A stretch of 64,000 nt of DNA from the NCBI GenBank assembly GCA_964416505.1, contig CAYQEJ010000004.1:59331-123330 (forward strand), given 5' to 3'. Below are positions 5,162-63,777 of the stretch, piece by piece. The notes under the pieces were generated by a model, which was given only the letters and a program-made list of their open reading frames with translations, did no database searches and was not told the DNA's origin. The position numbers and the translations under genes are program-made. The stretch's first letter is position 1, and the number at the start of each line of letters is the position of its first letter. This stretch comes from an uncultured Gammaproteobacteria bacterium (GTDB lineage Bacteria > Patescibacteriota > Microgenomatia > Levybacterales > UBA12049).

Positions 5162-6147
5162 TTTTTCCAATTTTGTGGAAGAAGAGGACTACTTAACTCA
5201 ACTTCTTGAAATTTAGGTTTTTGATGCCCCTTCTTCTTTGCCCATCCCCATGTCTTTATTAATCCCTTTTCCAAATCAGTTCTATCTTTATACGCCAAAT
5301 ACTTTTTACTTAATCTATGATCACTTATTGCCTCTTTTACTTCCTGCGGCCTTTCTGGAAGATGAATGGGATTAATTTTGGAATTAGATATTTTAGATAT
5401 TAAATTTGCTAATTCATTTACAGTGTAGACATTGTCTGAACCTATATTAAACGTCATTCCATTTACTTTATTTCCCAGACATTTCACCAAGGCATCAACT
5501 ACATCATCTATATATGAGAAACATCTTTTTTGATTTCCTTTTCCATAAATATAATAAGGTTTATTTGCAAGAATAGAATTCATAAAAATTGTCACTACGT
5601 TTCTATATGGATCCTTCATGTTCTGTCTGGGACCATAAACATTGTGAGGTCTTGCTACAACAAAATCAAAATTGTGAATTTTACTTAAAATTTTTAATGC
5701 ATCTTCAAATGCTAGTTTTGAAATTCCATATAAATCTTCCGGCTTAGGCGTATCTTTTTCTTTAAAAGGTATTTGAAGACTACCATAAACAGCTATGCTT
5801 GAAGTAAAAATGAATTTTTTCATTCCACTTCTTATTCCAGCTGTTAATACTTTAATGCTGCCGTCAAAATTTCTAGAAGTTATGTCTACAGGTGAAAATT
5901 GAGCTTTATTTTCTGCGGCATTTGCAGCAAGATGATATATAACATCTGGTTTATATTCTGAAAGAATTTTATCTATTTTTTTAAAATTTCTTATATCTAC
6001 TTTTACTAACTTAGCTTTTTTATTGCAATTTTCTAAACTTCCTCCAGAAAAATCATCTAAAATTAAAACCTTATGTCCTTTAACAATCAATTTATCAACT
6101 AAATGACTTCCTATAAATCCTGCTCCACCTGTAACTACTATCTTCAT
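5158..6147 (-). CDS. NAD-dependent sugar-nucleotide epimerase/dehydratase (short-chain dehydrogenase/reductase (SDR) family).
   Basis: The N-terminus has MKIVVTGGAGFIGSHLVDKL (a Rossmann GxxGxxG motif). A YxxxK motif is present. The length of 329 aa fits. Confidence 0.8.
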   Translation of the reverse strand: MKIVVTGGAGFIGSHLVDKLIVKGHKVLILDDFSGGSLENCNKKAKLVKVDIRNFKKIDKILSEYKPDVIYHLAANAAENKAQFSPVDITSRNFDGSIKVLTAGIRSGMKKFIFTSSIAVYGSLQIPFKEKDTPKPEDLYGISKLAFEDALKILSKIHNFDFVVARPHNVYGPRQNMKDPYRNVVTIFMNSILANKPYYIYGKGNQKRCFSYIDDVVDALVKCLGNKVNGMTFNIGSDNVYTVNELANLISKISNSKINPIHLPERPQEVKEAISDHRLSKKYLAYKDRTDLEKGLIKTWGWAKKKGHQKPKFQEVELSSPLLPQNWKN

Positions 6148-8353: not shown

Positions 8354-8815
8354 TTAGCGGGAGTTTGTGATTGTTTCTCCATTTTCAGGAGTCATTGCTG
8401 CAACTGTTACTCTATTATTTGCATCTTTTACTACGCTATATCCTGTTGTATATGTAGTACAGCTTGTTACTTCAGCACCATTGTTTACTTGAGGATCAAC
8501 TGGTAGAGCTGGGATGTATGTTGTTAATAGGTCAGTGCAAATATCAGCTTTTCCTGCACCACTACCAATTTCCTGTACTGTAGTAGTTATTCCTGCTGGA
8601 AGTACACCTTTGTGATCTGCTGAATATGCACCAATTGCATTAAGGATCTGAGTTACGTCACTTTTTCTCTTTGTGTTGTTTGCTTGTCCGAATTGTCTTG
8701 CTGGATTAATTGCGATTAAAACAATTGAGAGGAGGATTGCTAAAATTCCGATTACGACTAAAAGTTCTATTAATGTGAATCCTGAATTTTTCTTGAAAAC
8801 TTTTGGGCAGTTCAT
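8354..8815 (-). CDS. pilA: Major type IV pilin (PilA-like).
   Basis: Class III signal peptide ...KNSG|FTLIELLVVIGILAIL with Glu at +5. Two Cys lie in the C-terminal D-region. The length is 153 aa. Confidence 0.85.
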   Translation of the reverse strand: MNCPKVFKKNSGFTLIELLVVIGILAILLSIVLIAINPARQFGQANNTKRKSDVTQILNAIGAYSADHKGVLPAGITTTVQEIGSGAGKADICTDLLTTYIPALPVDPQVNNGAEVTSCTTYTTGYSVVKDANNRVTVAAMTPENGETITNSR

Positions 8816-8847
8816 AGTTATATATCTAGACTAAATAAAATTTAATT

Positions 8848-8861
8848 GCTTGTCAAGGGGG
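8848..8861 (-). promoter_or_regulatory. Promoter-like motif upstream of the major pilin gene. The minus strand reads CCCCCTTGACAAGC, which contains a -35 TTGACA.
   Basis: It shares GCTTGTCAAGrGGG with the hup upstream region and is followed by an AT-rich spacer about 35 nt before the pilA ATG. Confidence 0.35.
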
Positions 8862-8874
8862 TAATTTTTCAGCT

Positions 8875-9714
8875 TTAATTAGCTTCAGAATTATTTTCCC
8901 CAGTTCCACTATTTGATGAAAAATTTGACGAAAAATCTGGAGAAATTGCTGGTGAATTTGATGGCGCTATTACAGAAGGAACAGGAGCCGCTGGGTTATT
9001 AACCGGTAAAGCACTAGTTGGTTTTGGTGCCGAAAAAATATATTTATATAAAACAAATACCAGAATTAAAATAAGAAAAACAAAAACACCTGTTAACATA
9101 TAAAGCCTTTTGTTATCTTTTTTATTTTTCTCATTTGATTGCGCAAGCTGAGCCTGATCCGTGAGTAAGCTATAGGCTCTAAGATCTGGAACCTTATCTA
9201 AGATCAAACCAAGATCAAGATTGTTTTGTAAATTTGGCATAACTTCCATACAAGCTGAAAGAGGAATCACTGAGCTTACAACGAATCCAGAATCGACAAA
9301 CGCATTCCTAACAGCATCACATAGCTCCCTATTCGCAGCGGTAATCTTTGTCTTCTTAGTAAATTTCGATTTCTTGCTCAAGTAATCTTGAAATGGAACC
9401 AATTCTAAAAAATCTTGAACATTTTGATCTATCTGAACAGTACCATCAGTAAAATCTTTATCGAAAGTTACTGTTGTGGAAAGAAGAATTACAATATTCT
9501 CAGGAATTATTTTATAATTTGACACCAATGATTGAATCGCTGTCTCTATCTTTTTTTTGCTTATAACTTCAAGATCGCTAATCATATCCGGAGGAAAATC
9601 CACACCTACCGGAGAAGACAATCCGTGGTCATAAAAAAATCCTCTATTATTTTCTAGATAAAATATTCCTGTGGGTCTTTTTGGTAATTCTTTTTTTAAT
9701 TTATCTCTTTCCAT
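8875..9714 (-). CDS. Bitopic membrane protein within the pilus operon, with a cytoplasmic N-domain, one TM and a Pro/Ser-rich tail. It may play a PilM/PilN-like assembly role.
   Basis: A single TM helix (LYMLTGVFVFLILILVFVLY) follows a roughly 195-aa soluble domain. The C-terminal PxxP/S-rich region follows the TM. The gene sits between the minor and major pilin genes. Confidence 0.25.
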   Translation of the reverse strand: MERDKLKKELPKRPTGIFYLENNRGFFYDHGLSSPVGVDFPPDMISDLEVISKKKIETAIQSLVSNYKIIPENIVILLSTTVTFDKDFTDGTVQIDQNVQDFLELVPFQDYLSKKSKFTKKTKITAANRELCDAVRNAFVDSGFVVSSVIPLSACMEVMPNLQNNLDLGLILDKVPDLRAYSLLTDQAQLAQSNEKNKKDNKRLYMLTGVFVFLILILVFVLYKYIFSAPKPTSALPVNNPAAPVPSVIAPSNSPAISPDFSSNFSSNSGTGENNSEAN

Positions 9715-10064
9715 GAAGTAACAGTTAATTGATTATTTGTATTCGATGTCTGGACTTGGACTTTCCGAATTGTATTCGAAAAAGTAGCTGCACTAGTTAT
9801 CGTACCACTATTTACTACTATTACAACAGATCCACCATCAATACTCATAGTCTCTCCTGTATACGAAGGGTCACGAATCAACCTAAGTAACGCATTTTCA
9901 GCTCCTGTCTCTGCCATATAATATGCGGTAGTCCCCTGATCTACGCTACTAGTTGAGATTGCATTATTTAAAACAACCACCACGACTCCAGTAATTATCG
10001 CTAGGGAAATTGCCATAAAAAAAAGCAAAGTTATCAGCGCATTTCCTTTTTGAGATCTAATCAT
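9696..10064 (-). CDS. Minor pilin-like protein (PilX-like, atypical leader).
   Basis: The N-terminus MIRSQKG|NALITLLFFMAISLAII is a prepilin-like hydrophobic helix but lacks Glu at +5. Confidence 0.5.
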   Translation of the reverse strand: MIRSQKGNALITLLFFMAISLAIITGVVVVVLNNAISTSSVDQGTTAYYMAETGAENALLRLIRDPSYTGETMSIDGGSVVIVVNSGTITSAATFSNTIRKVQVQTSNTNNQLTVTSWKEIN

Positions 10065-10570
10065 CTAAGTCCTCCTGTAGTCTTAAAATTCACGACTTCT
10101 TTTCCTGATCTTCTATTTGCTTCTGAAGTTAAGGTATAAGAAATTTGTAATATATCTTTCCCATTGGAATCGCCCTCTATCCTTAGAAAAGAGAGATTCG
10201 ATACTTTTGTTTCATTGCTATTTAATTGGTCAGATGTGCCAGTAATAGAATTTTCTAGAATTAAATTCCCATCGTCTAATCCGTAAGATATATTCTGACT
10301 ATTAGCTACAATTGTCATAGCAGATCCTGAAGCACCTATTAGAGAAGGAATTGTTATACTTGATGCTCTTGACACATCATACCTAAATCTTTCTGCAATA
10401 TATCTTCCATCTACATTTACAGACGAAGTTGCTTGCGATTCTAATTGTAAATCAAAAACTGATCCATACATCTGAAGAGTTACTGCCAAAAGTATGCTAA
10501 ATATTCCCATATAAATGAGCAACTCTATTAAGGTGAATCCTTTTTTAACTTTAAATATTTTTTTAATCAT
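10061..10570 (-). CDS. Minor type IV pilin.
   Basis: KVKKG|FTLIELLIYMGIFSIL is a canonical prepilin cleavage motif with Glu at +5. Confidence 0.75.
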   Translation of the reverse strand: MIKKIFKVKKGFTLIELLIYMGIFSILLAVTLQMYGSVFDLQLESQATSSVNVDGRYIAERFRYDVSRASSITIPSLIGASGSAMTIVANSQNISYGLDDGNLILENSITGTSDQLNSNETKVSNLSFLRIEGDSNGKDILQISYTLTSEANRRSGKEVVNFKTTGGLR

Positions 10571-13530
10571 TAAGGTGAATAATTAACTCCAAAATCATAA
10601 AGAATTGGCGTCTGCGCTTGATCATTTGAGGACATATATATTTTATATCTCATACACTGTCCTGAATTTTCATAACCAGAGCCATCCGAATTCTTAGGAA
10701 GCTCTCCAGCAGCTGTAAAATAACTGCTTGATGTACCATCAGGCCCAACGTATACATAATTTGCGCCACCACACGATCCACCAACAGGATCTGCGATTGC
10801 CACCTGGTATGTTAATGTTGTTTGAGATGGAACGTTAACTGTAGAAAAAAATCTATTAAACATTGATTCTCCCGTTGCGTTAAAAGGCGCAGATTCAAAA
10901 GTACCAATTGATGAGTAAATCGCATCGTCAGGCCCTCCTTCAATTATTTTTAATTCATTTAGCGTAGTATTTGCCACCATGTAAACAAAATTATCACTAT
11001 CTGCTTCCGTTACTGAAGTTAAATCATTAAATCCTTGATCAAAATTTATTCCTGCACAATAAGTCGGCGAGGCCTCATTGGAACTATTCAAAACCTGGTA
11101 TTCTTCAGCATTATTTGAATTTCCAGTATTTCCATCTTTTCCAACTAAAACCACACGCTCTCCGTTTAGAACGGTTAAGGAACGTCTAGGATAAAGATCT
11201 GCATTAGCACCAGTTCCATAATAAAATCCACTCGTTGGACCATAGCTAGGAGATCCAGATGTGCCAGATAAAAATGCTGGAGCAGTTTTATTCGACGTAT
11301 TAATTACATAGAATTGCTTACTATCGGGCACCCCATTGTTATCCTTGTCGACTCCTCCATTTGATGAAATATAAGCTCTAGTTCCATCTGACTTTGCAAA
11401 TACTGAATTAGCTGCTTCTTCGGTAAACTGCTGAGAATTAAAATCAAGTCCGCTTACAACTTTCCAGCTAGCATCTCCACCTGAAATTGCACCGCAAGTG
11501 TTTTCTGCGCTTCTCGCAGTAGATGGAACAGTTGACACATCAACTATTTCAAATTCTCGGTCAGTTACCCCTCCTACGGCAACGTAAACGTATGTATTCA
11601 CTCCAACTTTAACAGGATATATATCATTTGTGGCATAAAGCTCTATATTTCCACCATCAGAACAGTCAGGGTGAATTGGGGTTGTAGTTGCCCAATTACT
11701 GCCACTTTGGCCTAAGGAATATTTCGCTGCTGAAGAAGTACCCGGATCACACTCATACCCATCCAACTGTATTCTGCAACCTTGCATATCAAGCCCGCTT
11801 GAAGTAGATTTTGTATCAATATTACTTAAATCAAAAATGTATAAAAATCCTCCTGAAGCCACATAACCTTTATTATCATAAACAGCTAATGATGTTGCCC
11901 CATAACCAAAAGGTGATCGGTCATAGGAATCATCATTAAAATAAACCTTAACAGTCGCCCAATCAAGTGAAAAATCACGAGTGGTATCACTCGCTACATC
12001 AATAACTCTAACTCTAAAATTCGAATTTGAAAAATCAGCATCGGCCCATGTTCTTCCCCAGTTATCGGTTGACCCTCCTAAAGAATAGGATACTTCTCCT
12101 GTTGTTAGGTTTGCAGTTGTCTTTGCAGTAGTCCAAGTAGATCCCCCATCCCACGAAAGCTGCACGCAAATCTTCGGGCTCCCCGTAGTAGAATCTGCCT
12201 TTGCATCAAGCCTTACCTCTATACCATTGATCGTGGATCCTGATGGAATATTGACGCCATAATTATAATACCTATGCTTGTCTTTATCTGCGCCCGTACA
12301 ATTCGTCCCAGTACCATTTCCAGAGTTGGTATCTACAGCGAAAGAATTATTATCACTATATGCTCTTGTCGGGTTCGTCGCGTAACCATCTCCATCTCCC
12401 CCAGTATCAGATGCATTTGAGGTTGGATTTAAAAATCCGGTATCTGTAGGAGCGTATGTGGAATAAATTTTTGTGTTAAAAAAAGTCCAGTATTTAAAAA
12501 TTTTATTTATAGGATCTTGATATTCACCAGTATTTGAACTGTTATTCGATGGATCTCCGTCATCCACCAAAACAGCAATTACTTCTTTATTAGGAAGATT
12601 CGTTCCCATAAGAGCATAAGTTTTACCCGCTGAAGATTTATAATACTTAATGTCTGTTGTCTTGAAATTATTATCTAAACCAGTTCCCGTTTGTGGAGAA
12701 TATCCTCCTGAAAACTCAGAAGAATTCATGGTAAATTTACCCGCCAAAACAGCTGAAGGAGTGCTTGTATTTGCCGTCACAGTAACATATGCCATTTTTA
12801 TAGAATTCGAAGTTGTAGGAGACGTAGCAACATAAACATTATTTGGAATACTTACAGAAGAACTAGCAGTAGCAGCAACAGCAACGGGTGGACCATCAGG
12901 AAGATCTATCGTGGTTGCAGAAAATGCCGGAGAACACCACTTAGCTTTGTTATCATTTATCAATTTCAACTCTCCTCCCCCTGTGTTAGTTACTTGAATA
13001 TTACTTGCAGTTCCAGAATTAAACTGAGATGAGGTAGTTTCTGTATATGAGAGATTTTTATATCTAGTAAAGTACGAGGTAGAACTAACATTTGACACAA
13101 GCGGAGTATTCCAGCTAACAGTTGTTACAACTTTTTTTGTTGATGGATCAACTGTTCCTCCAGAATTTACAATACCTCCACTGGAGTTTCTTTGCGCATC
13201 TGAGACATCAACTGAAATTGAAAAACCCTCAACTGCCTGGGCGCCTGATGTAAGCACGTACCTTCCATTGGAAATAACTGCATGGTAACTCCCATTTGCC
13301 GGAATATTACTCCATCCTCTTTCCGCTATGCTTCTTACTGCTTCTTGTGTTTCTTTTAAATAGGTTGTTGCCTGAAGTCTTTGCTCCTGCTGCGCTCTTC
13401 CTCCTCTTCCTGCTGCAAGCCCTGTAAGAAGAGCGGGTAAAATTAAAGTTGCAAGTCCGATAGCAATTAGAAGCTCAACTAACGACTGTCCTTTTTGACT
13501 TCTAAATTTTATCAATTTCCTTAAATTCAT
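10570..13530 (-). CDS. Giant pilin-like protein (986 aa) with a class III signal peptide; a putative modular minor pilin or tip adhesin.
   Basis: The N-terminus MNLRKLIKFRSQKG|QSLVELLIAIGLATLIL has Glu at +5. The remainder is Ser/Thr/Gly/Asn/Tyr-rich and predicted beta-rich. The gene lies between minor pilin genes. Confidence 0.7.
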   Translation of the reverse strand: MNLRKLIKFRSQKGQSLVELLIAIGLATLILPALLTGLAAGRGGRAQQEQRLQATTYLKETQEAVRSIAERGWSNIPANGSYHAVISNGRYVLTSGAQAVEGFSISVDVSDAQRNSSGGIVNSGGTVDPSTKKVVTTVSWNTPLVSNVSSTSYFTRYKNLSYTETTSSQFNSGTASNIQVTNTGGGELKLINDNKAKWCSPAFSATTIDLPDGPPVAVAATASSSVSIPNNVYVATSPTTSNSIKMAYVTVTANTSTPSAVLAGKFTMNSSEFSGGYSPQTGTGLDNNFKTTDIKYYKSSAGKTYALMGTNLPNKEVIAVLVDDGDPSNNSSNTGEYQDPINKIFKYWTFFNTKIYSTYAPTDTGFLNPTSNASDTGGDGDGYATNPTRAYSDNNSFAVDTNSGNGTGTNCTGADKDKHRYYNYGVNIPSGSTINGIEVRLDAKADSTTGSPKICVQLSWDGGSTWTTAKTTANLTTGEVSYSLGGSTDNWGRTWADADFSNSNFRVRVIDVASDTTRDFSLDWATVKVYFNDDSYDRSPFGYGATSLAVYDNKGYVASGGFLYIFDLSNIDTKSTSSGLDMQGCRIQLDGYECDPGTSSAAKYSLGQSGSNWATTTPIHPDCSDGGNIELYATNDIYPVKVGVNTYVYVAVGGVTDREFEIVDVSTVPSTARSAENTCGAISGGDASWKVVSGLDFNSQQFTEEAANSVFAKSDGTRAYISSNGGVDKDNNGVPDSKQFYVINTSNKTAPAFLSGTSGSPSYGPTSGFYYGTGANADLYPRRSLTVLNGERVVLVGKDGNTGNSNNAEEYQVLNSSNEASPTYCAGINFDQGFNDLTSVTEADSDNFVYMVANTTLNELKIIEGGPDDAIYSSIGTFESAPFNATGESMFNRFFSTVNVPSQTTLTYQVAIADPVGGSCGGANYVYVGPDGTSSSYFTAAGELPKNSDGSGYENSGQCMRYKIYMSSNDQAQTPILYDFGVNYSP

Positions 13531-14051
13531 CAGTTTACCCCCGTAATAACACCATACCTATTTATAGTTATAATTATTTCTTTATTAATTGCTATCGATC
13601 TGAGCGTTATAGTATTTGATGATGATGAATAACCTACCATTTCTCCACTTAGGGCTGAGAAAAGAAGAGTATTACTCGGTAATGTAGTACTCTTAATTTC
13701 TAGATCAGAAGGCAAATCTACAGTAAAATTAGTCGAATCTCCGCTGTTGTAGGTTCCACCATGAAACAAAATATATTTATTTGACATAAAATATATTCCG
13801 TAATTATCAGCTGAAGCTCTTCCCTCCGTGTTTCCAGTCATCGCCTTTATTTGCTGAGCTCTAATATCAGAAACAAGCTTATCTGTATTTGAAGTTTCAG
13901 AGGCGGATCCCTGAGCACGCAGTAAATTGAAAGTTATAACTCCAAAAAGGACCATCATAATTGAAGAAGCAAGAAGAATCTCAATAAAACTAAAACCTTT
14001 TTGAGACTTAAATTTCTTTAAATGTATAAATCTTGGCATACTATCTAGCAC
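13530..14051 (-). CDS. Minor type IV pilin (GspH/PilE-like).
   Basis: FKSQKG|FSFIEILLASSIMMVLFGVI is a prepilin motif. Confidence 0.75.
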   Translation of the reverse strand: MLDSMPRFIHLKKFKSQKGFSFIEILLASSIMMVLFGVITFNLLRAQGSASETSNTDKLVSDIRAQQIKAMTGNTEGRASADNYGIYFMSNKYILFHGGTYNSGDSTNFTVDLPSDLEIKSTTLPSNTLLFSALSGEMVGYSSSSNTITLRSIAINKEIIITINRYGVITGVN

Positions 14052-15096
14052 TCACCTGACCAATTAGTCCATATATTGGAGCAATTATTGAAAGCATAAC
14101 TCCACCTACTAAAAGACCTACAACTACAAGCATTACTGGCTCAAGAAGTGTAGTTAAATTTTTCAAACTATTAGTAACTCTATAGTCCTGCTGTTCAGAA
14201 ATATCTTGCATAGATTTATCTAAGGTTCCTGTCTTTTCTCCAGCTTCAACAATTTTTATGATTATTGATGAAAATATTTTCTTCTGGTTTTTGAAACCTT
14301 GCGATAAATTCTTTCCTCCCAAAACCGTATCTTCGGCATATTTTATGGCTGCTTCTATGTCTTTTCTTCTTACAACTTGAATCGATAAATCAAGAGCATT
14401 TGTAATCGTAATTCCTGAAGACAAAAGTAAATACATACTTCTTGAAAATCTTGCCAAGTCGATCTCCTTAACTAAATTAGAAACGACTGGAGCCATATAA
14501 AAGACATTAAGAATTCTTCTTCTCTGAGCCTTGAATAATAAAACTCCAAAAATTAAACTCACCAACATAACTACCAAAAAAGGCACTGTATAATCCAACA
14601 AGAGATTGGAAGCAGATATAAGAATCTTTGTAGGAAGAGGAAGTTTTACATTTAATCTAGAAAATACTGTTGAAATTTTTGGAATTACGACAGTTAAGAT
14701 CAAAAGCAAAACACCGGCAAAAACTGCAAGAATAACAACGGGATAAATCATTGCAGATTTTACCTTATCGTTAAATTCCATATCTTTTTGAATCTGCACT
14801 TTTAAATCTTTAAGAGTTACATCCATTGTTCCTGCTTCTTCTGAAGCACGCAAAACATTAACTGTAACCTTATCGAAAATTTCAGGAAATTTTGCAAAAG
14901 AGGAATATAAATGTTGACCCTGCATAAGATCTTCCCTCATTGTTTCTAAAACTCTTTTGGTATTCCCTTTTGAATCCTCAAGCAAAGAATCTATACTCTC
15001 GAGAATTGGAATTCCAGCAGTAATCATGGTAGATAGATTTCCCAAAAGGGCCAATTTATCACCACCCTTTAATGTAAGCTTTTCATTTGGTGTCAT
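14041..15096 (-). CDS. pilC: Type IV pilus assembly platform protein PilC (GspF family).
   Basis: Two GspF-like repeats contain 3 TM segments. The gene is adjacent to pilB. Confidence 0.8.
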   Translation of the reverse strand: MTPNEKLTLKGGDKLALLGNLSTMITAGIPILESIDSLLEDSKGNTKRVLETMREDLMQGQHLYSSFAKFPEIFDKVTVNVLRASEEAGTMDVTLKDLKVQIQKDMEFNDKVKSAMIYPVVILAVFAGVLLLILTVVIPKISTVFSRLNVKLPLPTKILISASNLLLDYTVPFLVVMLVSLIFGVLLFKAQRRRILNVFYMAPVVSNLVKEIDLARFSRSMYLLLSSGITITNALDLSIQVVRRKDIEAAIKYAEDTVLGGKNLSQGFKNQKKIFSSIIIKIVEAGEKTGTLDKSMQDISEQQDYRVTNSLKNLTTLLEPVMLVVVGLLVGGVMLSIIAPIYGLIGQVSAR

Positions 15097-15097
15097 T

Positions 15098-16780
15098 TTA
15101 TGCTGATTCTACTTTGGTAACTCTAAGAACTTCTTTTATAGTGGTCTTACCTTTTACAACCTTATCTAACCCGTCATCAAGCATAGTAGTCATTCCATCA
15201 GCTATCGCCTGCTTTGCAATTTCATCAGAATCACTTTTTGATGTAATAAGTTCTCTGATTTTTTCTGACATATCAATTACTTCAAAAATTCCAATTCTTC
15301 CACTATAGCCAGTGGCATGACAAACCTTACAACCTTTACCTTCATATACCCTAATCTGATCTCCAGGACCGAAGTATTTTGTAACTGCATCATCAGGAAT
15401 ATCTTTTAAAACTGCTTTTCTACTTATCACTATCTGAGCTTTACAAGAATCACAAATTTTCCTAACAAGTCTTTGAGCAATTATCACGTTCACGGTTGAA
15501 GCAACTAAAAAGGGCTCTATTTTCATATCAATCAAGCGTGGAAGGGTAGTAGCAGCATCATTGGTGTGAATCGTAGATAAAACCAAATGCCCGGTTAAAG
15601 CTGCATTTACGGCAATTCCTGCAGTTTCGCTGTCCCTAATTTCTCCTACAAAAATAACATTTGGATCTTGTCTTAAAATAGAACGAAGTCCGCTTGCGAA
15701 CGTTAAATTTGTTTTAGGATTTACTTGAATTTGATTAACACCTTTTATTCTGTATTCAACAGGCTCTTCAATAGTAGTTATATTTTTCTCTCTAGTATTA
15801 ACAATTTTTAAAATTGCATATACCGATGTTGTCTTACCAGATCCTGTAGGACCTGAGGACAGAATCATTCCGTAAGATTTATTAATTGCATTAGTCACTT
15901 TAGTTAAATCTCTTTCGTTCATACCAAGATCCTGAAGAGTGAATTGTCTAAATTTAGAAGACAAAAGTCTCATAACTATTTTTTCCCCTTCAGTAACTGG
16001 AATTATAGAAACACGAATATCCAGATTCTCCTCGTCTACCACAATTCTCATTTTTCCATCCTGCGCACTCAAATGCTCATCTGTTCTAAGACGAGATAAA
16101 ACCTTAATTCTTGTTACGATTCTGTCGTGAAGTTTTTTATCAACATACAAAACATCATGTAAAATTCCATCAATCCTAAATCTAACAAGTGAATTTTTTT
16201 CCTCTGGCTCTATGTGAACATCTGATGCTTTATCTCGATAAGCATAGGTGATAAGCAAATCTACAATTTTTGCAATCGGTGCCTCATCGAGCGTAGAAGC
16301 CGTCCTTGTTATTTCCGCTTGAAGCATTTGATCAAATGTTTGCTGAAGATCTTTTCTATAGAGCTGAAGCACATTTTCTATATCTTTTTCCGTTGCCATG
16401 TAGACGGTCACTTTTTGACCTGTCTTTTTGCTTATCATCTCAGGAAGTTTTGTATTAACTGGATCTGCAGCTGCAAGCTTTATACCATCTGCATCTTTTG
16501 CAAAAACAATTGCTTTGTGTTTCCTGGCCAATCTCTCCGGAACAATTCTATATACCCCTTCTGAAATCGTAATATTAGACAAAACTACAAAAGGATATTT
16601 AATATGATTCGCTATTAGTTGACCAAGCTTATCATCTGGAATTACATCTTTTTCCATTATTGCTTGCTGGAGAGGAATTCTTCCATTCGCCGCAAATACC
16701 AAAACATCCCTCATGGTCTTAGTGTCAACTAGACCAGACTGAAGAAGCAGTTGTTGTATCTCAATATCGGGCAGAAGCAT
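15098..16780 (-). CDS. pilB: Type IV pilus assembly ATPase PilB (GspE family).
   Basis: Walker A GPTGSGKTT is present, along with GspE Asp/His boxes and a tetra-Cys motif CDSCK...CKVC. The length is 560 aa. Confidence 0.9.
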   Translation of the reverse strand: MLLPDIEIQQLLLQSGLVDTKTMRDVLVFAANGRIPLQQAIMEKDVIPDDKLGQLIANHIKYPFVVLSNITISEGVYRIVPERLARKHKAIVFAKDADGIKLAAADPVNTKLPEMISKKTGQKVTVYMATEKDIENVLQLYRKDLQQTFDQMLQAEITRTASTLDEAPIAKIVDLLITYAYRDKASDVHIEPEEKNSLVRFRIDGILHDVLYVDKKLHDRIVTRIKVLSRLRTDEHLSAQDGKMRIVVDEENLDIRVSIIPVTEGEKIVMRLLSSKFRQFTLQDLGMNERDLTKVTNAINKSYGMILSSGPTGSGKTTSVYAILKIVNTREKNITTIEEPVEYRIKGVNQIQVNPKTNLTFASGLRSILRQDPNVIFVGEIRDSETAGIAVNAALTGHLVLSTIHTNDAATTLPRLIDMKIEPFLVASTVNVIIAQRLVRKICDSCKAQIVISRKAVLKDIPDDAVTKYFGPGDQIRVYEGKGCKVCHATGYSGRIGIFEVIDMSEKIRELITSKSDSDEIAKQAIADGMTTMLDDGLDKVVKGKTTIKEVLRVTKVESA

Positions 16781-16869: not shown

Positions 16870-18603
16870 TTGGAAACAATGAAGCTAATCGCATTTATAG
16901 TTTTTTTAATTGCAGGAATTTTTATTACATATCCCTGGATCTTTCATTTAAGTGATTTCGTAACTGGGTATGGAGACAATTTCGTTTATACATGGATACA
17001 TACTTGGGTAATTGAATCTATAATAAATGGAAATATTACACAAATTTTCAATACTAATATTTTCTATCCTTATCAGGTAGGGCTTTCAGTCTCTGATCCA
17101 AATATATCAACAGCAATCCTCTCAATACCCATTTACTTGTTAACTAGAGAGCCAATTTCGACTGTAAATTTCACAACAATATTTTCTATAGTTTTCCTAG
17201 GGTTTTCCATTTACTTACTTTCTTATTATTTAACAAAAAATTATCTAGCTTCTATTTTTTCCGGACTGCTCATAGCATTTTCACCGGCATATCTTAGTTT
17301 CTATGGACATTTACAAATGATGTCTATTGCCTTTACTCCACTTTCTATTCTTTGTTTTTTAATTTTTATAAAAACCAAAAAACAAAAAAATCTAATAATT
17401 TCTTTATTTTTATTTCTTTTACAAACTTATAATAATTTTTTGGGAGGCTACTTTATTCTTTTTTCCTATTTGATCATTTTTTTATTTAATTTAATTGGAA
17501 ATAAATCAAAAACAATTGGTCTGATTTCCAAAAAAAATATTATTATTTTTATTTCTTTTTTTGCACTAATTATTCCAGTCGCTAATTCATACTTTTCGGT
17601 TTCCAAGGAGTTTAATTACAAAAGAGATATTAGAGATGCAGTTCATTTCGCAAACCAACCTGAAGATTTTCTCCTAACTATGGAATTTAGCCGTTTACAA
17701 AAGCCCTTAAAATCACTTCCTTTTAATCAGGTTTCACAAAATTCAGAATTTAAACCTGCATTTTTAGGATTTATATTTAGTCTTTTGTTCTTATTCTCAA
17801 TTTTTTATTTTTTTAAAAATTTAAAAAGGAAAAACATATATTTAAATTCATTTATGACTATAGCTGCTCTCGGATTTGTCTTAAGCCTAGGCCCCGTACT
17901 TCATCTTGGTAGGCAAACCATACATAATCCTATTATTCCTCTCCCTTATGCTCTTTTTTATTATATTGTTCCCGGATTTCAAGGATTCAGGAATTCAGCG
18001 AGATGGGAAGTTCTCATGCTTATCGGGGCTTCCGTTGTAATAGCTGTTATTCTTAGCAAAGTTTTTGGAAAATTTAGTACCAAGAAACAATTCATAATTT
18101 ATTCTCTTCTAACATTAGTGTGCATAATTGAATTAAATCTTCCTCTTAAGTTCGTAAAAATGCAGTCAATAAAAAATATTCCCCAAGAATACCATTGGCT
18201 CGCAACAACTCCTGAGGATACAAAACTAATTGAAATGCCGGTTTACAACTGGAACATGTTCCCCTATGGCAATCAAGAACTTTGGAGACTTTATTATTCA
18301 ACGAGTAATTTCAGAAGAACCGTAAATGGAACTGGAGGATTTACTCCACCTCCTTGGCAGGAAATGGCATATGAACTAGATGAAAATTTCCCAAATGAAA
18401 AATCCATCACCAAACTAAAGAATCTCAACCTCAACTATATTCTTGTTCATAAAAATGAATTTGATAAATTAAATAGTGATAAATTTACAATAAATAAAAA
18501 AATTATACCTAGTGGAGAATTCGTTATTAGAAATTTAAATAAAAATCCAGAATTAAAACTTATCAACAGATTTGGGGATACGTATATTTACAGCCTTAAT
18601 TAG
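16870..18603 (+). CDS. Polytopic membrane protein with a C-terminal soluble domain; a putative GT-C-like glycosyltransferase. The likely ATG start is at 16879.
   Basis: About 12 TM helices. An early loop carries TGYGDNFVYTW. A roughly 150-aa C-terminal extracytoplasmic domain follows. Confidence 0.3.
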   Translation: METMKLIAFIVFLIAGIFITYPWIFHLSDFVTGYGDNFVYTWIHTWVIESIINGNITQIFNTNIFYPYQVGLSVSDPNISTAILSIPIYLLTREPISTVNFTTIFSIVFLGFSIYLLSYYLTKNYLASIFSGLLIAFSPAYLSFYGHLQMMSIAFTPLSILCFLIFIKTKKQKNLIISLFLFLLQTYNNFLGGYFILFSYLIIFLFNLIGNKSKTIGLISKKNIIIFISFFALIIPVANSYFSVSKEFNYKRDIRDAVHFANQPEDFLLTMEFSRLQKPLKSLPFNQVSQNSEFKPAFLGFIFSLLFLFSIFYFFKNLKRKNIYLNSFMTIAALGFVLSLGPVLHLGRQTIHNPIIPLPYALFYYIVPGFQGFRNSARWEVLMLIGASVVIAVILSKVFGKFSTKKQFIIYSLLTLVCIIELNLPLKFVKMQSIKNIPQEYHWLATTPEDTKLIEMPVYNWNMFPYGNQELWRLYYSTSNFRRTVNGTGGFTPPPWQEMAYELDENFPNEKSITKLKNLNLNYILVHKNEFDKLNSDKFTINKKIIPSGEFVIRNLNKNPELKLINRFGDTYIYSLN

Positions 18604-18620
18604 GATAGTGGCATTTTTTG
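18596..18620. repeat. Left copy of a 25-bp perfect direct repeat, ttaattaggatagtggcattttttg.
   Basis: It is identical to 20425-20449, and the pair flanks the 18630-20237 gene. Confidence 0.9.
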
Positions 18621-18629
18621 AACTGCTGA

Positions 18630-20237
18630 TCAATTAGGAGACCATATAGCATTTTCAAATTTTATATTTTTATCCTCATAATTGATCTCACCAGTTTTTT
18701 CTCCAGTTTCTTTATCTTTAAATTGCAGTCCGGCATTAGTTTCTTCTATTTTTGAAGTTATTATTTTATTAAAAGTGTTATATAAATCTGTAAACTGCTT
18801 CTCGCTAAGAATTGCATTTGGTGATGAAATTGAATCAACTAAATCTGACTCAGATCCTGTCTTTAGATCTAATAATTTTACATAAACGGAATCTGATAAT
18901 TTATAAGGCTGAAAGTTACCAGCATACCTACCAATTAAAATTACAAATCTTTTACGTGAGTCGACGTGTAATAATTCAGGTGGAATAGGTGCATTAATTT
19001 TTAGATCATATATTTTTTTAGGGAATTCTCCTTTTTTTAAAACATAAATCCCATCACCTGCTAATAAATTGTACTGCGAATTAATTTTTTCCAAGGGGTA
19101 ATAACTTTTAAGAAACCCCATATCTCTGCTTATTATTCTATTTTCTTCATCTATAAATTTATATTCAGCCTGCGGTGCAATATTTTTTATAGGCACGGTG
19201 TCTTTTGGAATACTGGTAACTAATTTCCAATTCTTATTGGAAATATCATAGGCGTAACTTTTCCAAACATTATCTTGAGCTAATTTGAAATAGATAAATG
19301 AAGGAGAATAGGAAACTATTTCATAATTCTTAAATTCAAACGGAATCAGCGGAGATTCAATCCACCCATTCTTTGTTTGAATGAAGATTTTCTTACAACT
19401 TCTTATCCCATCAAATAGATTTGTATTTACTTTAACTAATCTACCATCTAAACAGCCAGGGATTCCCAATTCTTTAGGCAATTGATCTTGGGGAATGATC
19501 TTAATTTCATTTGAAACAGGATCTATTTTCGTTATCAAAGAATTTCCATTTACAAAATTAAAATCATTTAAAATTAAAATTTTTCCATTCTGATTAAATA
19601 ATTCAGAATTAACAAAATAAGGTTTACTCGATGATTGCTTGGAATAATTAACTACTTCTGGATCCTCATAGGAATCAAAATATTCTGAAGTTATATTTCC
19701 TGAACTTAAATCTAATTTATAAATTCCTCTCTTTATTTGCTTTGAAGAATTACCACAAAAGATAAATAAGAAATTATTAACTTTAGCTACTGAATTCACA
19801 CATCCGAAGACAGTAGGATTTAATTGTCTAACGATGTTTTTATTTTTTGGATCATATTCTACTATCCAATTTAAACCAGCAATCAACTGATGCTCTTTAT
19901 ACTGATAAACTGCACGAACTTCAGGGAAGAAATAAAGAAAATCTTTTTCACTAAGACTATCAAAATTATCAATATGATCAATAAAAACATTTTTTATAAC
20001 TTCATTTTTTACATTTACAGCAACAGTATTTACAATCTCCGAATCCTGCTTTCTATTCTCATTAATAGTAAAGCGACTGCTTAATATTGAAATTATTCCT
20101 ATAAAAAGCGGAATCAAAATTATTACAAAGATAAATAAAAATAATTTTTTTCTAGCAGTTTTTGAAGTTTTTTGGGACCAAGATAAAGCTTTTGGAAGCT
20201 CTGCCCTAGCGCTTTTGTCTGATTGATTTTGATCCAT
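18630..20237 (-). CDS. Hypothetical exported protein anchored by an N-terminal TM. It sits on a cassette bounded by 25-bp direct repeats.
   Basis: An N-terminal basic stretch and TM (LFLFIFVIILIPLFIGIISIL) precede a large Asn/Lys-rich ectodomain. No family recognised. Confidence 0.5.
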   Translation of the reverse strand: MDQNQSDKSARAELPKALSWSQKTSKTARKKLFLFIFVIILIPLFIGIISILSSRFTINENRKQDSEIVNTVAVNVKNEVIKNVFIDHIDNFDSLSEKDFLYFFPEVRAVYQYKEHQLIAGLNWIVEYDPKNKNIVRQLNPTVFGCVNSVAKVNNFLFIFCGNSSKQIKRGIYKLDLSSGNITSEYFDSYEDPEVVNYSKQSSSKPYFVNSELFNQNGKILILNDFNFVNGNSLITKIDPVSNEIKIIPQDQLPKELGIPGCLDGRLVKVNTNLFDGIRSCKKIFIQTKNGWIESPLIPFEFKNYEIVSYSPSFIYFKLAQDNVWKSYAYDISNKNWKLVTSIPKDTVPIKNIAPQAEYKFIDEENRIISRDMGFLKSYYPLEKINSQYNLLAGDGIYVLKKGEFPKKIYDLKINAPIPPELLHVDSRKRFVILIGRYAGNFQPYKLSDSVYVKLLDLKTGSESDLVDSISSPNAILSEKQFTDLYNTFNKIITSKIEETNAGLQFKDKETGEKTGEINYEDKNIKFENAIWSPN

Positions 20238-20424
20238 GTTCTTATTTAGGCAAATTTCTAATTCCTAGTCAATAAAATCCACATGGTAATAGGTGGTTAT
20301 AAAAAGTGATTTTTTGAATAAACAAAAAGTAATAAGTTTACCAAAAATCTGAAAATTTATGAGGCTAGTAAATTTCTCCTGTAAGGCAACTAAATCATGG
20401 ATCTAGATTGACTTGACAATCTAA

Positions 20425-20449
20425 TTAATTAGGATAGTGGCATTTTTTG
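20425..20449. repeat. Right copy of the 25-bp perfect direct repeat. It coincides with the secA 3' end, encoding ...KKCHYPN*.
   Basis: Identical to 18596-18620. Confidence 0.9.
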
Positions 20450-23166
20450 TATTTTTTTCCGCTTCCACACCAACATGGATCATTTCTACCTAACTTCTTT
20501 TTATCAACCGGTGCCGAAGTATTTACCGGAGATAAATTTGGAGCTACAGATATTGGCACACTTTTAGTTTCTTTTGATTTTCTTGCTGATTTTTTAGGCG
20601 CTTCATCAGCTCCCAATTCTCCACCTGCAGGAGTTTCATGAATATGCATATGTGGAGTTTCGGGAGTAGCTACATGAACCTTGAATATTCTATGAGAGAT
20701 CTCATCGTTAATTCCAGCAATTAATTTTTCAAACATCTTAAATGCTTCATTTTTATATTCGACTAGTGGATCCTTCTGACCGTATGCTCGAAGTCTTATT
20801 CCTTCTCTTAAGTTATCTACTACGTCCAAATGCTCCATCCAAAGATTATCTATCACCGAAAGAGTCACGAAATTATCAATTTGACGCATGGTTTTTTCAC
20901 CAAGCTCTTTTTCCCGATTCTCATACATATCTCTGGCTATATTACTTAAAAATTCTATCCTTGAATTAATTTCAGGCCTATCTTCAATTTGCTTAGCAAG
21001 CTCTTTCTGTGACGCCTCATCAAAAGGAATAATTGTTGAGAATTCAGAAATAATTTTTTCAGAAACACTTTCGCCAGCTGCGCCTAAATCTCCTGAATTT
21101 ACAATATTGGCGATAGAGGTATCCAAATTTTCTAAAATTTCCTCTTTAGAAGTTTTTGATTGGGCATGTGCATTTTCGAGCGCTACTCTTCTTCTTTGAT
21201 AAATAATCTCTCTTTGTTTATTTAAAACATCATCATATTCAACGAGCTGCTTTCTTGAATCAAAATTAAATCCTTCAACCTTAACTTGAGCCTGCTCGAT
21301 TGCCCGACTTACAATCGGATGCTCCAATGGAACATCTTCAGGCATGTTGAATTTAGTCATAATTCCAGCGATACTATCTCCTCCGAAAAGCCTCATGATT
21401 TCATCATCAAGCGCCACATAGAATCTGGATTTACCAGGATCTCCCTGACGTCCAGATCTTCCCCTTAACTGATTATCAATTCTTCGAGATTCATGTCTTT
21501 CGGTACCAATGACATAGAGTCCGCCAAGAGACAATACTTCATCATGAGCCTTCTGCCATCTTTCCCATTCGCGAGTACCTTTAAGATCTATTCCATCCTC
21601 TCCCACCGGAGCAGCTCCACCAAGAATAATATCAACTCCACGTCCAGCCATATTTGTGGCTACCGTTACCGCTCCTTTTTCTCCTGCTTTGGCAATAATT
21701 TCTGCTTCTCTTTCATGATTTTTTGCATTAAGAAGTTCGTGTTTTATGCCGCGTCTTCTAAGAAGCTCTGAGAGAATTTCATTTTTATCAATTGAAGTTG
21801 TTCCTACCAAAACAGGCTGACCTGTTTTATTGGCTTTCTCTATTTCTGCAACAACTGCGCTAAACTTAGCTCTAGTGGTTTTGTAAATAGCATCAGAAAA
21901 ATCTTCTCTCTGAACTATTTTATTGGTAGGAATTACTACTACATCAAGCTTATAAATTTTATGGAATTCCTGAGCTTCTGTTACTGCTGTACCAGTCATT
22001 CCAGCCAATCTTTCATACATCCTGAAATAATTCTGAAGCGAGACCGTAGCTAAAGTTTTTGATTCGCGCTGGATCGCAACTCCTTCTTTGGCTTCAATTG
22101 CTTGATGAAGACCATCAGACAAGCGACGACCAATCATAAGACGCCCGGTAAATTCATCAACCAAAATTACTTCTCCATCTCTAACGATATAATCTTTTTC
22201 TTTTTTAAATAACGTTCTTGCTTTTAATGCAGCCTCAATGTGATAAACCGTATCAAAATCTTTTTCGTATATGTTTTGTATTCCAAAAAGCTTTTCTATC
22301 TTTCCAAGTCCATGATCTGTTAAGTGAGCTGTGTGAAGCTTTTCATCAATTTTATAATCGGTATCCGGAGAAAGTTTTTCTACTAACTTAGCGTAATCAT
22401 AATATTTATTTGTGGGAGTTTCATCTGGAGCAGATATAATATGAGGAGTTCTAGCTTCATCAATAAGAACTGAATCCACCTCATCGACTATTGCAAAGTA
22501 ATAACCTCTTTGAGTTACATTTTCAATATTTTGCTGCATATTATCTCTTAAATAATCAAATCCAAATTCAGAATTGATTCCATAAACGACATCTGCTTGA
22601 TATGCCTCTTTTCTAGTTACCGGTTTTAGATGAGTAAGTCTAAAATCGTGCGCATCTTTATTCGCAAAGCTCGAGTCATAAATAAAAGATTGCTCTGAAA
22701 TAATTGATGCAACTTTCATACCAAGAAACTCAAATACAGGGCCCATCCATCCGGCATCACGCCTAGCTAGATAGTCATTAACCGTTACCAAATGTACAGC
22801 TTTTCCTGAAAGAGCATGTAAGTAGAGAGCTGGAGTAGCTGAGAGAGTTTTTCCTTCTCCTGTTTTTTGCTCTGCAATTTTTCCTAAATAGAGAGACGCA
22901 GAAGCCATAAGCTGAACATCATAATGACGTTGCCCTATGGTTCGCCTTGCAGCTTCTCTGACTAAGGCAAACGCTTCAGGAAGTAGTAAATCCAAACTTT
23001 CTCCCTCAAGAGCTCTTTTTTTAAGTTCTTTTGTTTTTTTAGGAAAATCTGAATCTTTTAGTTTTTTTGTTTTATCTTCGAGTGCATTTATTTCAGAAAT
23101 AAGAGGTTCTAGCTTTTTTATTTCCTTTTCGTTGGAATCGAATAATTTTCCGAGGATGGGTAACAT
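20425..23166 (-). CDS. secA: Preprotein translocase ATPase SecA.
   Basis: The N-terminus MLPILGKLFDSNEKEIKKL is SecA-like. DEAD-like motor motifs are present, and there is a C-terminal zinc finger CWCGSGKKYKKCH. Confidence 0.95.
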   Translation of the reverse strand: MLPILGKLFDSNEKEIKKLEPLISEINALEDKTKKLKDSDFPKKTKELKKRALEGESLDLLLPEAFALVREAARRTIGQRHYDVQLMASASLYLGKIAEQKTGEGKTLSATPALYLHALSGKAVHLVTVNDYLARRDAGWMGPVFEFLGMKVASIISEQSFIYDSSFANKDAHDFRLTHLKPVTRKEAYQADVVYGINSEFGFDYLRDNMQQNIENVTQRGYYFAIVDEVDSVLIDEARTPHIISAPDETPTNKYYDYAKLVEKLSPDTDYKIDEKLHTAHLTDHGLGKIEKLFGIQNIYEKDFDTVYHIEAALKARTLFKKEKDYIVRDGEVILVDEFTGRLMIGRRLSDGLHQAIEAKEGVAIQRESKTLATVSLQNYFRMYERLAGMTGTAVTEAQEFHKIYKLDVVVIPTNKIVQREDFSDAIYKTTRAKFSAVVAEIEKANKTGQPVLVGTTSIDKNEILSELLRRRGIKHELLNAKNHEREAEIIAKAGEKGAVTVATNMAGRGVDIILGGAAPVGEDGIDLKGTREWERWQKAHDEVLSLGGLYVIGTERHESRRIDNQLRGRSGRQGDPGKSRFYVALDDEIMRLFGGDSIAGIMTKFNMPEDVPLEHPIVSRAIEQAQVKVEGFNFDSRKQLVEYDDVLNKQREIIYQRRRVALENAHAQSKTSKEEILENLDTSIANIVNSGDLGAAGESVSEKIISEFSTIIPFDEASQKELAKQIEDRPEINSRIEFLSNIARDMYENREKELGEKTMRQIDNFVTLSVIDNLWMEHLDVVDNLREGIRLRAYGQKDPLVEYKNEAFKMFEKLIAGINDEISHRIFKVHVATPETPHMHIHETPAGGELGADEAPKKSARKSKETKSVPISVAPNLSPVNTSAPVDKKKLGRNDPCWCGSGKKYKKCHYPN

Positions 23167-41946: not shown

Positions 41947-42094
41947 AAACTAAGAATAAAAAGAAATTCGGAAATAAATCCGGAAGCTTATCCTTCTATC
42001 AAATTGAGGTATAAATTAGATTTCATAATCCTCTTTTGACAATTTCTTCTTGTCTAATGCGTATTATATTACTTATGCTTTAGAAAATCAAAGT

Positions 42095-42125
42095 TAGCCT
42101 CGCAAGGCCAGGCCTTGCGAGGCTA
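42095..42125. repeat. GC-rich perfect palindrome TAGCCTCGCAAGGCC-a-GGCCTTGCGAGGCTA, repeat family copy 1. It lies downstream of recX.
   Basis: 15-bp perfect arms. Near-identical copies occur at 62621 and 63651. The GC-rich element stands out against an AT-rich background. Confidence 0.85.
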
Positions 42126-43718: not shown

Positions 43719-43776
43719 GTCAAAATAATAGACTACATTTCAGTAAAATTCAAGAACCGATTTCGTAAGAGATTAG

Positions 43777-43847
43777 TCGGGGTGCCGAGAATCGAACTTG
43801 GACCACACGGCCCCCAGCCGCGCATTCTACCACTAAACTACACCCCG
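43777..43847 (-). tRNA. tRNA-Pro (anticodon GGG).
   Basis: Manual fold: acceptor CGGGGUG/CACCCCG, anticodon stem CGCGG/CCGUG with loop CUGGGGG (U33, G37), T-loop UUCGAUU, discriminator A. No CCA is encoded. Confidence 0.75.
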
Positions 43848-62620: not shown

Positions 62621-62651
62621 TAGCCTCGCAAGGCCTGGCCTTGCGAGGCTA
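62621..62651. repeat. GC-rich perfect palindrome, repeat family copy 2 (TAGCCTCGCAAGGCC-t-GGCCTTGCGAGGCTA).
   Basis: Its arms are identical to the copy at 42095. The 3' flank AAGCGCTATAAGATATCTG resembles the flank of copy 3. Confidence 0.85.
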
Positions 62652-62690
62652 AAGCGCTATAAGATATCTGAGAATTAAATTTATCTTGGA

Positions 62691-63650: not shown

Positions 63651-63681
63651 CAGCCTCGCAAGGCCAGGCCTTGCGAGACTA
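63651..63681. repeat. GC-rich palindrome, repeat family copy 3. It has one arm mismatch and lies between rpsJ and the inserted genes.
   Basis: CAGCCTCGCAAGGCC-a-GGCCTTGCGAGACTA, with the flank AAGACACTATAAGACTG. Confidence 0.8.
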
Positions 63682-63777
63682 AGACACTATAAGACTGTCA
63701 TAAAATTCACTACGAAATAATTTTCAGTGGGTAAAAAGGGTATAAGATGAAGATTAGAAAATATCAGAGAAGCAAGA

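Follow-up and report, generated by a model that had tools for sequence, protein, structure and literature searches.

A duplicated secA 3' end as the probable recombination scar of a variable cargo slot in Levybacteria

The locus described here poses the question of why the 3' end of secA should be present twice, once at the end of the gene itself and once more on the far side of the gene that follows it. The DNA analyzed (64,000 nt of contig CAYQEJ010000004.1, hereafter the window) contains a 25-nt sequence, TTAATTAGGATAGTGGCATTTTTTG (the 25-mer), in exactly two copies, at positions 18596-18620 and 20425-20449, in the same orientation and with no mismatch. The initial annotation of this DNA had described these copies as a perfect direct repeat and was correct in this respect. 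The 64-kb window holds no additional copy with three or fewer mismatches. The 25-mer did not appear in any of 100 dinucleotide-preserving shuffles of the window (0/100), which rules out a chance repeat.

The right copy is the live 3' end of secA (20425-23166, minus strand), a conserved gene whose 913-aa product carries all of the SecA Pfam domains and the SEC-C zinc motif. Read on the minus strand, this copy comprises the third base of a Tyr codon, followed by the codons for KKCHYPN and the stop (C AAA AAA TGC CAC TAT CCT AAT TAA), in agreement with its earlier assignment as the end of SecA. The left copy (minus strand) is read here as a displaced secA terminus, or relic. In the secA frame an in-frame TAG is found 5 codons upstream of it; the left copy is therefore non-coding. 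It had initially been placed just past the stop codon of the adjacent gene, m577 (16870-18603, plus strand), which encodes a 577-aa membrane protein of the DUF6311/DUF7657-like type and converges on the slot. In fact, the m577 stop lies within the relic: the first 8 nt of the left copy (plus strand) provide the last two codons of m577 and its TAG (18601-18603). As had been noted, the copies enclose one gene and its promoter region and nothing else, namely a 535-aa open reading frame (ORF) that we call p535 (18630-20237, minus strand) and a 187-nt leader running from the secA stop to the p535 start (20238-20424, minus strand). On the minus strand the left copy begins 9 nt downstream of the p535 stop. 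The gene order across the region is pilC-pilB (minus), m577 (plus), p535 (minus) and secA-serS-ham1 (minus). Altogether, the comparisons presented below suggest that the repeat pair is probably a scar of recombination that brackets a slot for variable cargo at the secA 3' end. They also indicate that the phenomenon is lineage-wide rather than a single insertion and that the cassette reading offered by the initial annotation is essentially right.

The relatives of the window SecA belong to Candidatus Levybacteria (Levyibacteriota), members of the candidate phyla radiation (CPR; Patescibacteria), and assign the genome of the window to this group. Second copies were sought in the related loci (designated L followed by a number) by searching for the 25-mer and then with an nhmmer profile of the element so defined. 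All second copies of the 25-mer sit downstream of secA and are in the secA orientation. Relics equivalent to the left copy of the window are found in L005, L009, L019, L022, L030, L031, L036, L046, L082, L084 and others. Among relics from different lineages a segment of about 30 nt upstream of the 25-mer (in the secA orientation) is also kept. In the window this arm, delimited by nhmmer and alignment, occupies positions 18621-18649 (minus strand) and overlaps the p535 stop codon. Arm and 25-mer together form an element of about 55 nt with the consensus ATGTGGyaCCCTATTTGAaTAGCAGTTC-AAAAAATGCCACTATCCTAATTRA, in which the arm precedes the hyphen. The element profile matches the window at 18597-18649 with E values of about 1e-12 to 1e-16, and at least 10 Levybacteria loci besides the window bear the element. 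It is complete in the window and in L005, L009, L019, L022, L036, L046 and L084, and is present in two full copies in both L031 and L082. Co-oriented arrays of 2-3 elements, all on the secA strand, occur in L082, L031, L092 and L102. Across about 80 loci, the 8 kb upstream of secA contained no element.

The sequence of the element points to its origin. The arm aligns to the secA codons for PCWCGSGKKY, and in L102 a less decayed relic of about 75 nt still reads DDSCRCGSGKKYKKC and is recognizably secA. Taken together, these findings identify the element as a secA 3' end that has been displaced. Most differences among the relic 25-mers fall at synonymous, third-codon positions of the secA frame (TGC/TGT, CAC/CAT, CCT/CCG/CCC, AAT/AAC, TAA/TGA/TAG), as would be expected of a sequence that was coding until it was displaced. 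The length of the duplication varies by locus: it is shortest in the L005 type (about 13 nt), measures 25 nt in the window and about 47 nt in L019, and reaches about 75 nt in L102. There are also short arrangements (L026, L030, L089, L095, L101) in which the secA tail is followed by the old tail, either directly or past a GC-rich spacer of 31-39 nt.

Variation at the slot extends to strains of the same species. Contig L098, from another sample, shares 98.5% nucleotide identity with the window over the pil genes and m577 and has a different gene at the slot, a 229-aa ORF (partial) with a GC content of 0.40 and no Pfam match. Its homology to the window stops at position 18611, inside the left repeat. 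The L098 relic is split into CAAAAAATATCAC, a 21-nt palindromic insert and TATCCTAATTAA, with 11 of the 13 bases of the left half kept and the right 12 nt intact. A simple truncation of the repeat at CAC|TAT is ruled out, since the right 12 nt persist beyond the insert. The presence of different cargo at 98.5% identity implies that the exchange is more recent than a 1.5% divergence, which fits with the repeat of the window being perfect.

The arrangement in the window is unlikely to be an assembly artefact. An independent contig (L001), from the Logan assembly of SRR12487045, is 100% identical to the window between 8726 and 20381 and reproduces the left junction (m577, repeat, p535). The right junction, which the fragmented Logan assembly does not show directly, is backed by synteny: a leader homologous to that of the window also comes after the secA end in L005. 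Other samples yielded four more Logan contigs, L098 among them, with 98-99% identity to the window across the pil genes and m577. L001 ends at 20381 and L097, an independent contig from a different sample, at 18552; on the low-coordinate side, each stops exactly 44 nt short of a 25-mer copy. Branching of the assembly graph by strain variants close to the repeats is one possible cause, and coincidence another.

Unoccupied sites with a single copy exist among genus-level relatives. In L002, L004 and L006, whose SecA proteins are 81-82% identical to that of the window, the order is ham1-serS-secA-pilB-pilC, the secA-pilB distance is 73-84 bp, and the 25-mer (24/25) is present once, as the secA end. 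These loci lack m577 as well as p535 and so do not represent the exact empty site for the window genome. Such a site, with one repeat copy and secA directly followed by the 577-aa gene, had been anticipated in the initial annotation; it was not found among genome contigs, metagenome contigs or same-species Logan contigs, and in the empty relatives it is pilB that follows secA. The m577 family is widespread (233 homologues), and its orthologues at 62-63% identity (L094-L096) are also divergently arranged beside pilB. This rules out m577 as a part of the cassette: it is a conserved chromosomal neighbor of pilB, not a boundary of the insertion event. On the other side, serS and ham1 lie upstream of secA in all close relatives. 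A secA end matching the 25-mer at 24 or more of 25 positions is found in L084, L085 and L091 as well as in the three empty loci.

The conserved far flank of the variable interval is pilB (15098-16780, minus strand), which encodes the type IV pilus ATPase. Among relatives secA and pilB are separated by anything from 73 bp to about 8 kb, and the interval contains, depending on the locus, a subtilisin-like peptidase, a TPR protein, enolase/PPDK, an APH-type kinase or ORFans. In the empty loci and in L005 a copy of the 25-mer sits 70-85 nt upstream of pilB. In L102-L105 a 576-aa TPR-like gene lies directly upstream of pilB between imperfect direct repeats of 40 nt (positions 5694-5733 and 7603-7642 in L102). 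This repeat corresponds to the pilB upstream region and is unlike the 25-mer; thus, flanking duplications at the locus are not tied to one attachment (att) sequence. L102, L104 and L105 have identical PilB proteins and differ from each other further upstream. Separately, two loci have insertions exactly at the secA stop, with neither relic nor duplication: a 370-aa ORFan in L003 (10778-11890, minus strand) and a 327-aa APH-family kinase in L091 (2000-2983) are convergent and end inside a palindromic CCTAATTAGG at that stop.

Different loci carry unrelated cargo between secA and the element. Where the window has p535, L005 carries a 407-aa transmembrane protein (p407), L009 a Phd/PIN pair with a DEAD-box helicase, L019 a RelE-type pair, L046 an ABC transporter, L036 APH(6), L031 an alpha/beta hydrolase and L102 an S8 peptidase; in L092 an AadA-like nucleotidyltransferase is enclosed between two elements. 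ORFans are also among the cargo of element-bearing loci. The p535 protein is predicted to have one N-terminal transmembrane helix and a mostly-beta ectodomain (from a poor AlphaFold model, pLDDT 47), and its gene has a GC content of 0.285 against 0.337 for the window. In Pfam it gave only a sub-threshold Kelch match. A word-index search of 5.8 billion proteins returned one homologue, P0002 (24% identity to p535), and 60 remote relatives were found in 1.84 billion cluster representatives, with conservation mainly over residues 25-190; the family is sparse and fast-evolving. A hidden Markov model of the family detects P0002 alone among the loci gathered. The P0002 gene, too, comes after serS-secA, with a relic (3 mismatches) on its far side. 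According to the initial annotation, the same gene between diverged repeats would speak for an ancient chance duplication. The P0002 locus bears on this in part, as it does have a diverged repeat copy; its position downstream of secA, with a relic, suggests an old or travelling cassette family and not a chance duplication. Between the window and L005, whose cargo genes differ, the leaders share about 70% identity, and the two cargo proteins can be aligned over their first 80 or so residues.

Recurrent patterns are also seen at the junctions. Directly past the secA stop, the window leader contains an inverted repeat, TTAGATTG-N6-CAATCTAG (20403-20424, minus strand), predicted to form a weak hairpin (-3.8 kcal/mol, z = -0.5). 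A motif of the form TTAG(A/C)TTG-N6-CAATCTAA is present past the secA end or past an internal element wherever another cassette follows (L005, L019, L026, L031, L082). Terminal relics lack the inverted-repeat motif, and in the window the 8-6-8 inverted repeat is found only at the secA copy. The leader also includes a promoter-like pair, TTGACT-17-CTAAAT, which was read by eye and not called by the promoter scan.

In L005, L010, L022 and L082, SecA ends in CH|L-x-S/T-D-L.. instead of CHYPN. All three of those loci that have enough downstream sequence (L005, L022, L082) carry full elements. The far relic of L005 keeps the native TATCCTAATTAA and is followed by the normal pilB upstream region, a pattern suggestive of reciprocal exchange with a crossover in AA(A/G)AATGCCAC. 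In L030, residues 1-666 of SecA are 88% identical to the window protein and residues 651-913 only 66%. Here the secA tail is of a foreign type and a native-type tail (23/24) has been left 35 nt downstream. The mixed identity and the displaced native tail are a signature of homologous recombination. Both the element-bearing loci and those with altered tails are scattered over the SecA tree.

Additional irregularities were observed in the tails and relics. Variant SecA C-termini fall into patterns, namely CH|L-x-S/T-D-L-(G/A)(R) in the four loci just mentioned, C-G-L-(I/V)-N-A-x-x-H.. in L007, L012 and L035, and CHYP with 3-6 extra residues in L017, L025, L034, L036, L037, L041, L047 and L054; by their sequences, these look like recombination junctions inside the zinc-finger tail. 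The 31-39-nt spacers are homologous and share (A)GCGCAGTCC(T)GAGC (L026, 10698-10728; L030, 10934-10966; L089; L094; L095). In five lineages the spacer parts a "new" secA tail, of the KRCH(Y/F)PN type, from an "old" one; in L094 it comes after a full element, far from any secA in view. Some relic 25-mers contain GC-rich or palindromic inserts of 17-23 nt near the TGT/TGC-CAC position (L031, 11538-11654; L101, ~2182-2230; L102, ~3255-3300 and ~5090-5145; L098, ~665-705), as in AAAAAATGTT[TACCCTGAGCGAAGCCGAATGGG]TCACTATCC and CAAAAAATATCAC[TCCATTGGAATGAAATTCCCA]TATCC, with the insert in brackets. These may stem from targeted insertion of miniature elements or from shared ancestry.

A plausible course of events would begin with incoming DNA joining at the secA end and either supplying a complete terminus or keeping the existing one. 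The previous terminus would be pushed downstream and persist as a non-coding relic made of the decayed arm and the 25-mer. Cargo could later be gained, lost or exchanged through crossovers located in or beside the 25-mer as well as in the extended conserved flanks, formed by secA on one side and by the relic, m577 and pilB on the other. RecA would act on DNA taken up from related Levybacteria, either through a double crossover or through a Campbell-type insertion followed by loop-out via the short repeat. With host homologous recombination as the engine, no dedicated integrase would be needed. Such a homology-driven engine is suggested by the recombinant secA of L030, the different repeat of L102-L105, the varying repeat lengths and the presence of recA in the window. 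We propose it tentatively as the most likely engine, with somewhat less than an even chance of being correct.

A number of observations weigh against this account. In E. coli, 25 nt of homology lies at the lower bound of what a RecA-dependent crossover requires. For a neutral relic, the arm is conserved too well across distant lineages, and full elements occur with no secA in view in L092 (two) and L094. The altered SecA ends of L005, L010, L022 and L082 begin at the same nucleotide, past TGCCAC/TGTCAC, and continue into homologous sequence; to judge from these sequences, the shared switch point in four lineages resembles a fixed point of crossover. Recombinase-driven cassette systems typically carry toxin-antitoxin pairs and aminoglycoside-modifying enzymes, both of which occur here. 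Lastly, sliding-window identity, for which there was no relative close enough to show one, revealed no recombination breakpoint in the secA gene of the window itself.

The repeats might instead be true attL and attR sites flanking an integrase-less, cis-mobilizable cassette, with insertion and excision at the secA terminus carried out by a site-specific recombinase whose gene lies elsewhere in the genome or on a helper element. The cassette-borne site would then consist of arm and 25-mer (perhaps with the inverted repeat) and the chromosomal site of the secA end. This possibility, which we regard as doubtful yet deserving of serious attention, is favored by the use of the same site in the same orientation, by the conservation of the ~55-nt element in at least 10 lineages, by arrays of 2-3 cassettes, by the types of cargo (toxin-antitoxin, APH, AadA-like), by the scatter of states on the SecA tree, and by a repeat that is perfect in the window while cargo is polymorphic within the species. 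Arm conservation and the common start of the altered tails count in the same direction. Furthermore, the junctions of L005, L022 and L082 agree with a classical att exchange: secA..AAAAAATGCCAC runs into homologous element sequence, CTG(G/A)A(C/T)AGTGATTTAGG.., and arm..AA(A/G)AATGCCAC on the far side continues into the native TATCCTAATTAA and native downstream DNA. However, no tyrosine or serine recombinase was found in the cargo, in the 8-kb flanks of element-bearing loci or among the candidate ORFs of the 64-kb window. Pfam searches identified no integrase in 10 window ORFs of integrase-like size (they returned RecA, RmuC, TsaD, RpoA and others), consistent with what had been stated initially, and no recombinase in about 54 cargo and flank ORFs from related loci. 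Cargo and flanking ORFs of the window and of about 17 related loci showed no recombinase family in Pfam, and neither integrase nor transposase appeared among about 60 cargo and flank ORFs or the 10 window candidates. The 25-mer is without dyad symmetry, and thus without a dyad core of inverted recombinase-binding repeats, and has no conserved hairpin. The terminal relic of the window lacks the inverted repeat found past the secA copy, and repeat length differs between loci. A degenerate 24-mer used to look for a phage or plasmid carrier had no match in 2.9 million viral contigs, and no integrase-bearing element using the same site was seen among about 100 loci or in the viral contigs. Finally, L030 clearly represents a homologous replacement of about 800 nt of secA. 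Of the attL/attR pair proposed by the initial annotation, what stands is an insertion-type event that leaves secA with a complete terminus and the older one displaced; an integrase-made att pair is unproven, no recombinase having been found in cargo or flanks.

The duplication might alternatively be old and vertically inherited, the gene between the copies having diverged or been replaced in place, with perfect identity in the window resulting from recent gene conversion between tail and relic and nothing being mobile at present. The homology of leader and first ~80 cargo residues between the window and L005 would agree with this, as would the location of P0002, the only clear homologue of p535, downstream of secA and before a relic. 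The arms look like decayed secA, and a secA tail that is broken in L005 and L082 and restored in the window is what conversion from a relic would yield. We nevertheless judge this explanation improbable: a strain of the same species has different cargo, the SecA tree shows the states scattered, extra events would be needed to explain arrays and elements without secA (L092, L094), and in most loci the relic matches the tail of its own genome no better than those of others, which indicates that conversion is not ongoing. A further alternative, that the 25-mer is kept twice for a DNA or RNA function (terminator, operator, 3'-untranslated region element, or a pilB/m577 regulatory region overlapping the secA end), appears very improbable. 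The nucleotide sequence, with its GC-ending codons TGC CAC, is identical in SecA genes whose proteins are 56-58% identical (L085, L087, L090; a sample chosen by search pattern), and the copy does lie 70-85 nt from pilB in the empty loci and L005. Against this, many secA tails vary synonymously, and the window relic adjoins the 3' end of m577, not pilB. RNAalifold predicted 0 pairs on 13 elements, and single-strand DNA folds were no better than shuffles (z = 0.1 to 0.7), a result that also rejects an integron attC site, no hairpin being predicted. Rfam has no family at the copies (only a sub-threshold microRNA match elsewhere), and no terminator or promoter was called at either. Target-site duplication, by a transposase or a Cas1-like integrase, and a chance repeat or assembly artefact are effectively refuted. 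Their only support is the [repeat][gene][repeat] geometry. The copies contain no terminal inverted repeats, there is no transposase, and the duplicated length ranges from ~13 to ~75 nt, so the long target-site duplication suggested initially does not hold; shuffling, the independent assembly of the left junction and synteny at the right one dispose of the others. A dif/Xer site was likewise rejected: the cumulative GC skew falls monotonically across the site, with no turn, and the 11-6-11 dyad structure is missing.

Comparison with known systems helps to define the preferred reading, that of a recombination scar at a cargo slot. Elements that insert into a gene 3' end and bring a replacement end include phage 21 and e14 at icd, and SCCmec and pseudo-SCC elements (SCC, staphylococcal cassette chromosome) at rlmH/orfX. 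As in phage 21/e14 and SCCmec, insertion targets the final codons of a conserved gene without disrupting it, and the old end, or a block of identity, becomes a far direct repeat; the mark of this class, a pair of direct repeats that takes in the 3' end of the target and leaves the gene with a regenerated terminus, is present here. As in SCC, successive insertions give arrays parted by repeat copies, and integrase-less derivatives such as pseudo-SCC exist. Unlike phage 21/e14 and SCCmec, there is no Int or Ccr-like recombinase in about 16 cargo sets or nearby, no integrase-bearing "parent" was seen, the site has no dyad core, the units are single-gene and of 1-3 kb, and the host is a CPR bacterium. 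Integrons and clusters of attC sites lacking integron integrases (CALINs) resemble the locus in having co-oriented one- or two-gene cassettes closed by a conserved site (here of ~55 nt), in arrays at a fixed chromosomal position, and in cargo that includes toxin-antitoxin pairs and aminoglycoside-modifying enzymes. The locus differs from them in that IntI is missing, the element is not an imperfect palindrome and has neither R''/L''-L'/R' boxes nor a predicted hairpin, the site originates from the end of a housekeeping gene, with which it is identical, and the window cassette has its own leader with a promoter-like region.

CIMEs, the cis-mobilizable elements flanked by att sites of an integrative and conjugative element (ICE) that were described in Streptococcus thermophilus, also have, at the 3' end of a conserved gene, cargo enclosed by att-like direct repeats, and no recombination genes of their own. 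They are defined by a cognate ICE on the same att site, in contrast to the present case, in which neither ICE nor integrase was found. At hotspots, or "genomic islets", between core genes, turnover occurs by homologous and homology-facilitated illegitimate recombination after natural transformation. The locus resembles them in its variable interval between secA and pilB/m577, its strain-level differences without mobile-element genes, the recombinant 3' part of secA in L030 and the presence of RecA; the features by which homologous-recombination hotspots are recognized (conserved flanks, strain-variable content, no mobile-element genes, allelic replacement) are all found. Ordinary hotspots, however, leave no conserved, oriented ~55-nt element per cargo unit and no regenerated gene terminus. 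Xer/dif elements (IMEX, pdif modules) are also integrase-less modules flanked by short copies of a chromosomal site, and use a host recombinase; unlike them, the locus has no 11-6-11 dyad, is not at a turning point of the GC skew, and has its direct repeats inside a coding end. In its working, the system appears closest to elements that regenerate a gene 3' end and to integrase-less CIMEs or CALIN-like arrays. One could go further and imagine a new integron-like cassette system of Levybacteria, in which the last ~25 nt of secA serve as docking site and a recombinase encoded elsewhere moves single-gene cassettes with ~55-nt, secA-mimicking ends into arrays beside the type IV pilus operon; the cargo would be surface proteins, toxin-antitoxin pairs and aminoglycoside-modifying enzymes. 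We think this unlikely. Literature searches found no description of an attachment (docking) site at the secA 3' end or of cassette systems in CPR bacteria.

Other features of the window are recorded here for completeness. The slot adjoins a type IV pilus cluster (8354-16780) that comprises pilB, pilC, several N_methyl prepilin-like ORFs and a gene for a 986-aa protein. In CPR bacteria type IV pili are thought to serve DNA uptake and host attachment. The recA gene (42627-43718) is next to the only tRNA gene of the window, tRNA-Pro GGG (43776-43847), and an RmuC-family recombination protein is encoded at 35293-36312. A GC-rich palindrome, TAGCCTCGCAAGGCC(A/T)GGCCTTGCGAGGCTA, occurs in this AT-rich genome in three perfect or near-perfect intergenic copies (42094-42125, 62621-62652 and 63652-63682), which could be REP-like (repetitive extragenic palindromic) repeats or terminator hairpins.

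CPR/Patescibacteria have tiny genomes with few recognizable mobile elements and no genetic tools, and how they gain and shuffle accessory genes is largely unknown. The locus described here provides a fixed docking point, made of the secA terminus and the ~55-nt element, at which unrelated accessory genes come and go, even between strains that are 98.5% identical. For annotation, it implies that displaced ends and altered SecA C-termini (CH|LxSDL..) are products of recombination and not sequencing errors. Whether exchange depends on a recombinase, or can proceed with RecA and natural transformation alone, becomes testable; the slot lies beside the type IV pilus genes. It may also be a candidate neutral insertion site for engineering. 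More generally, the secA end offers a handle on the flexible gene pool of these bacteria, which can be explored by searching metagenomes downstream of secA.

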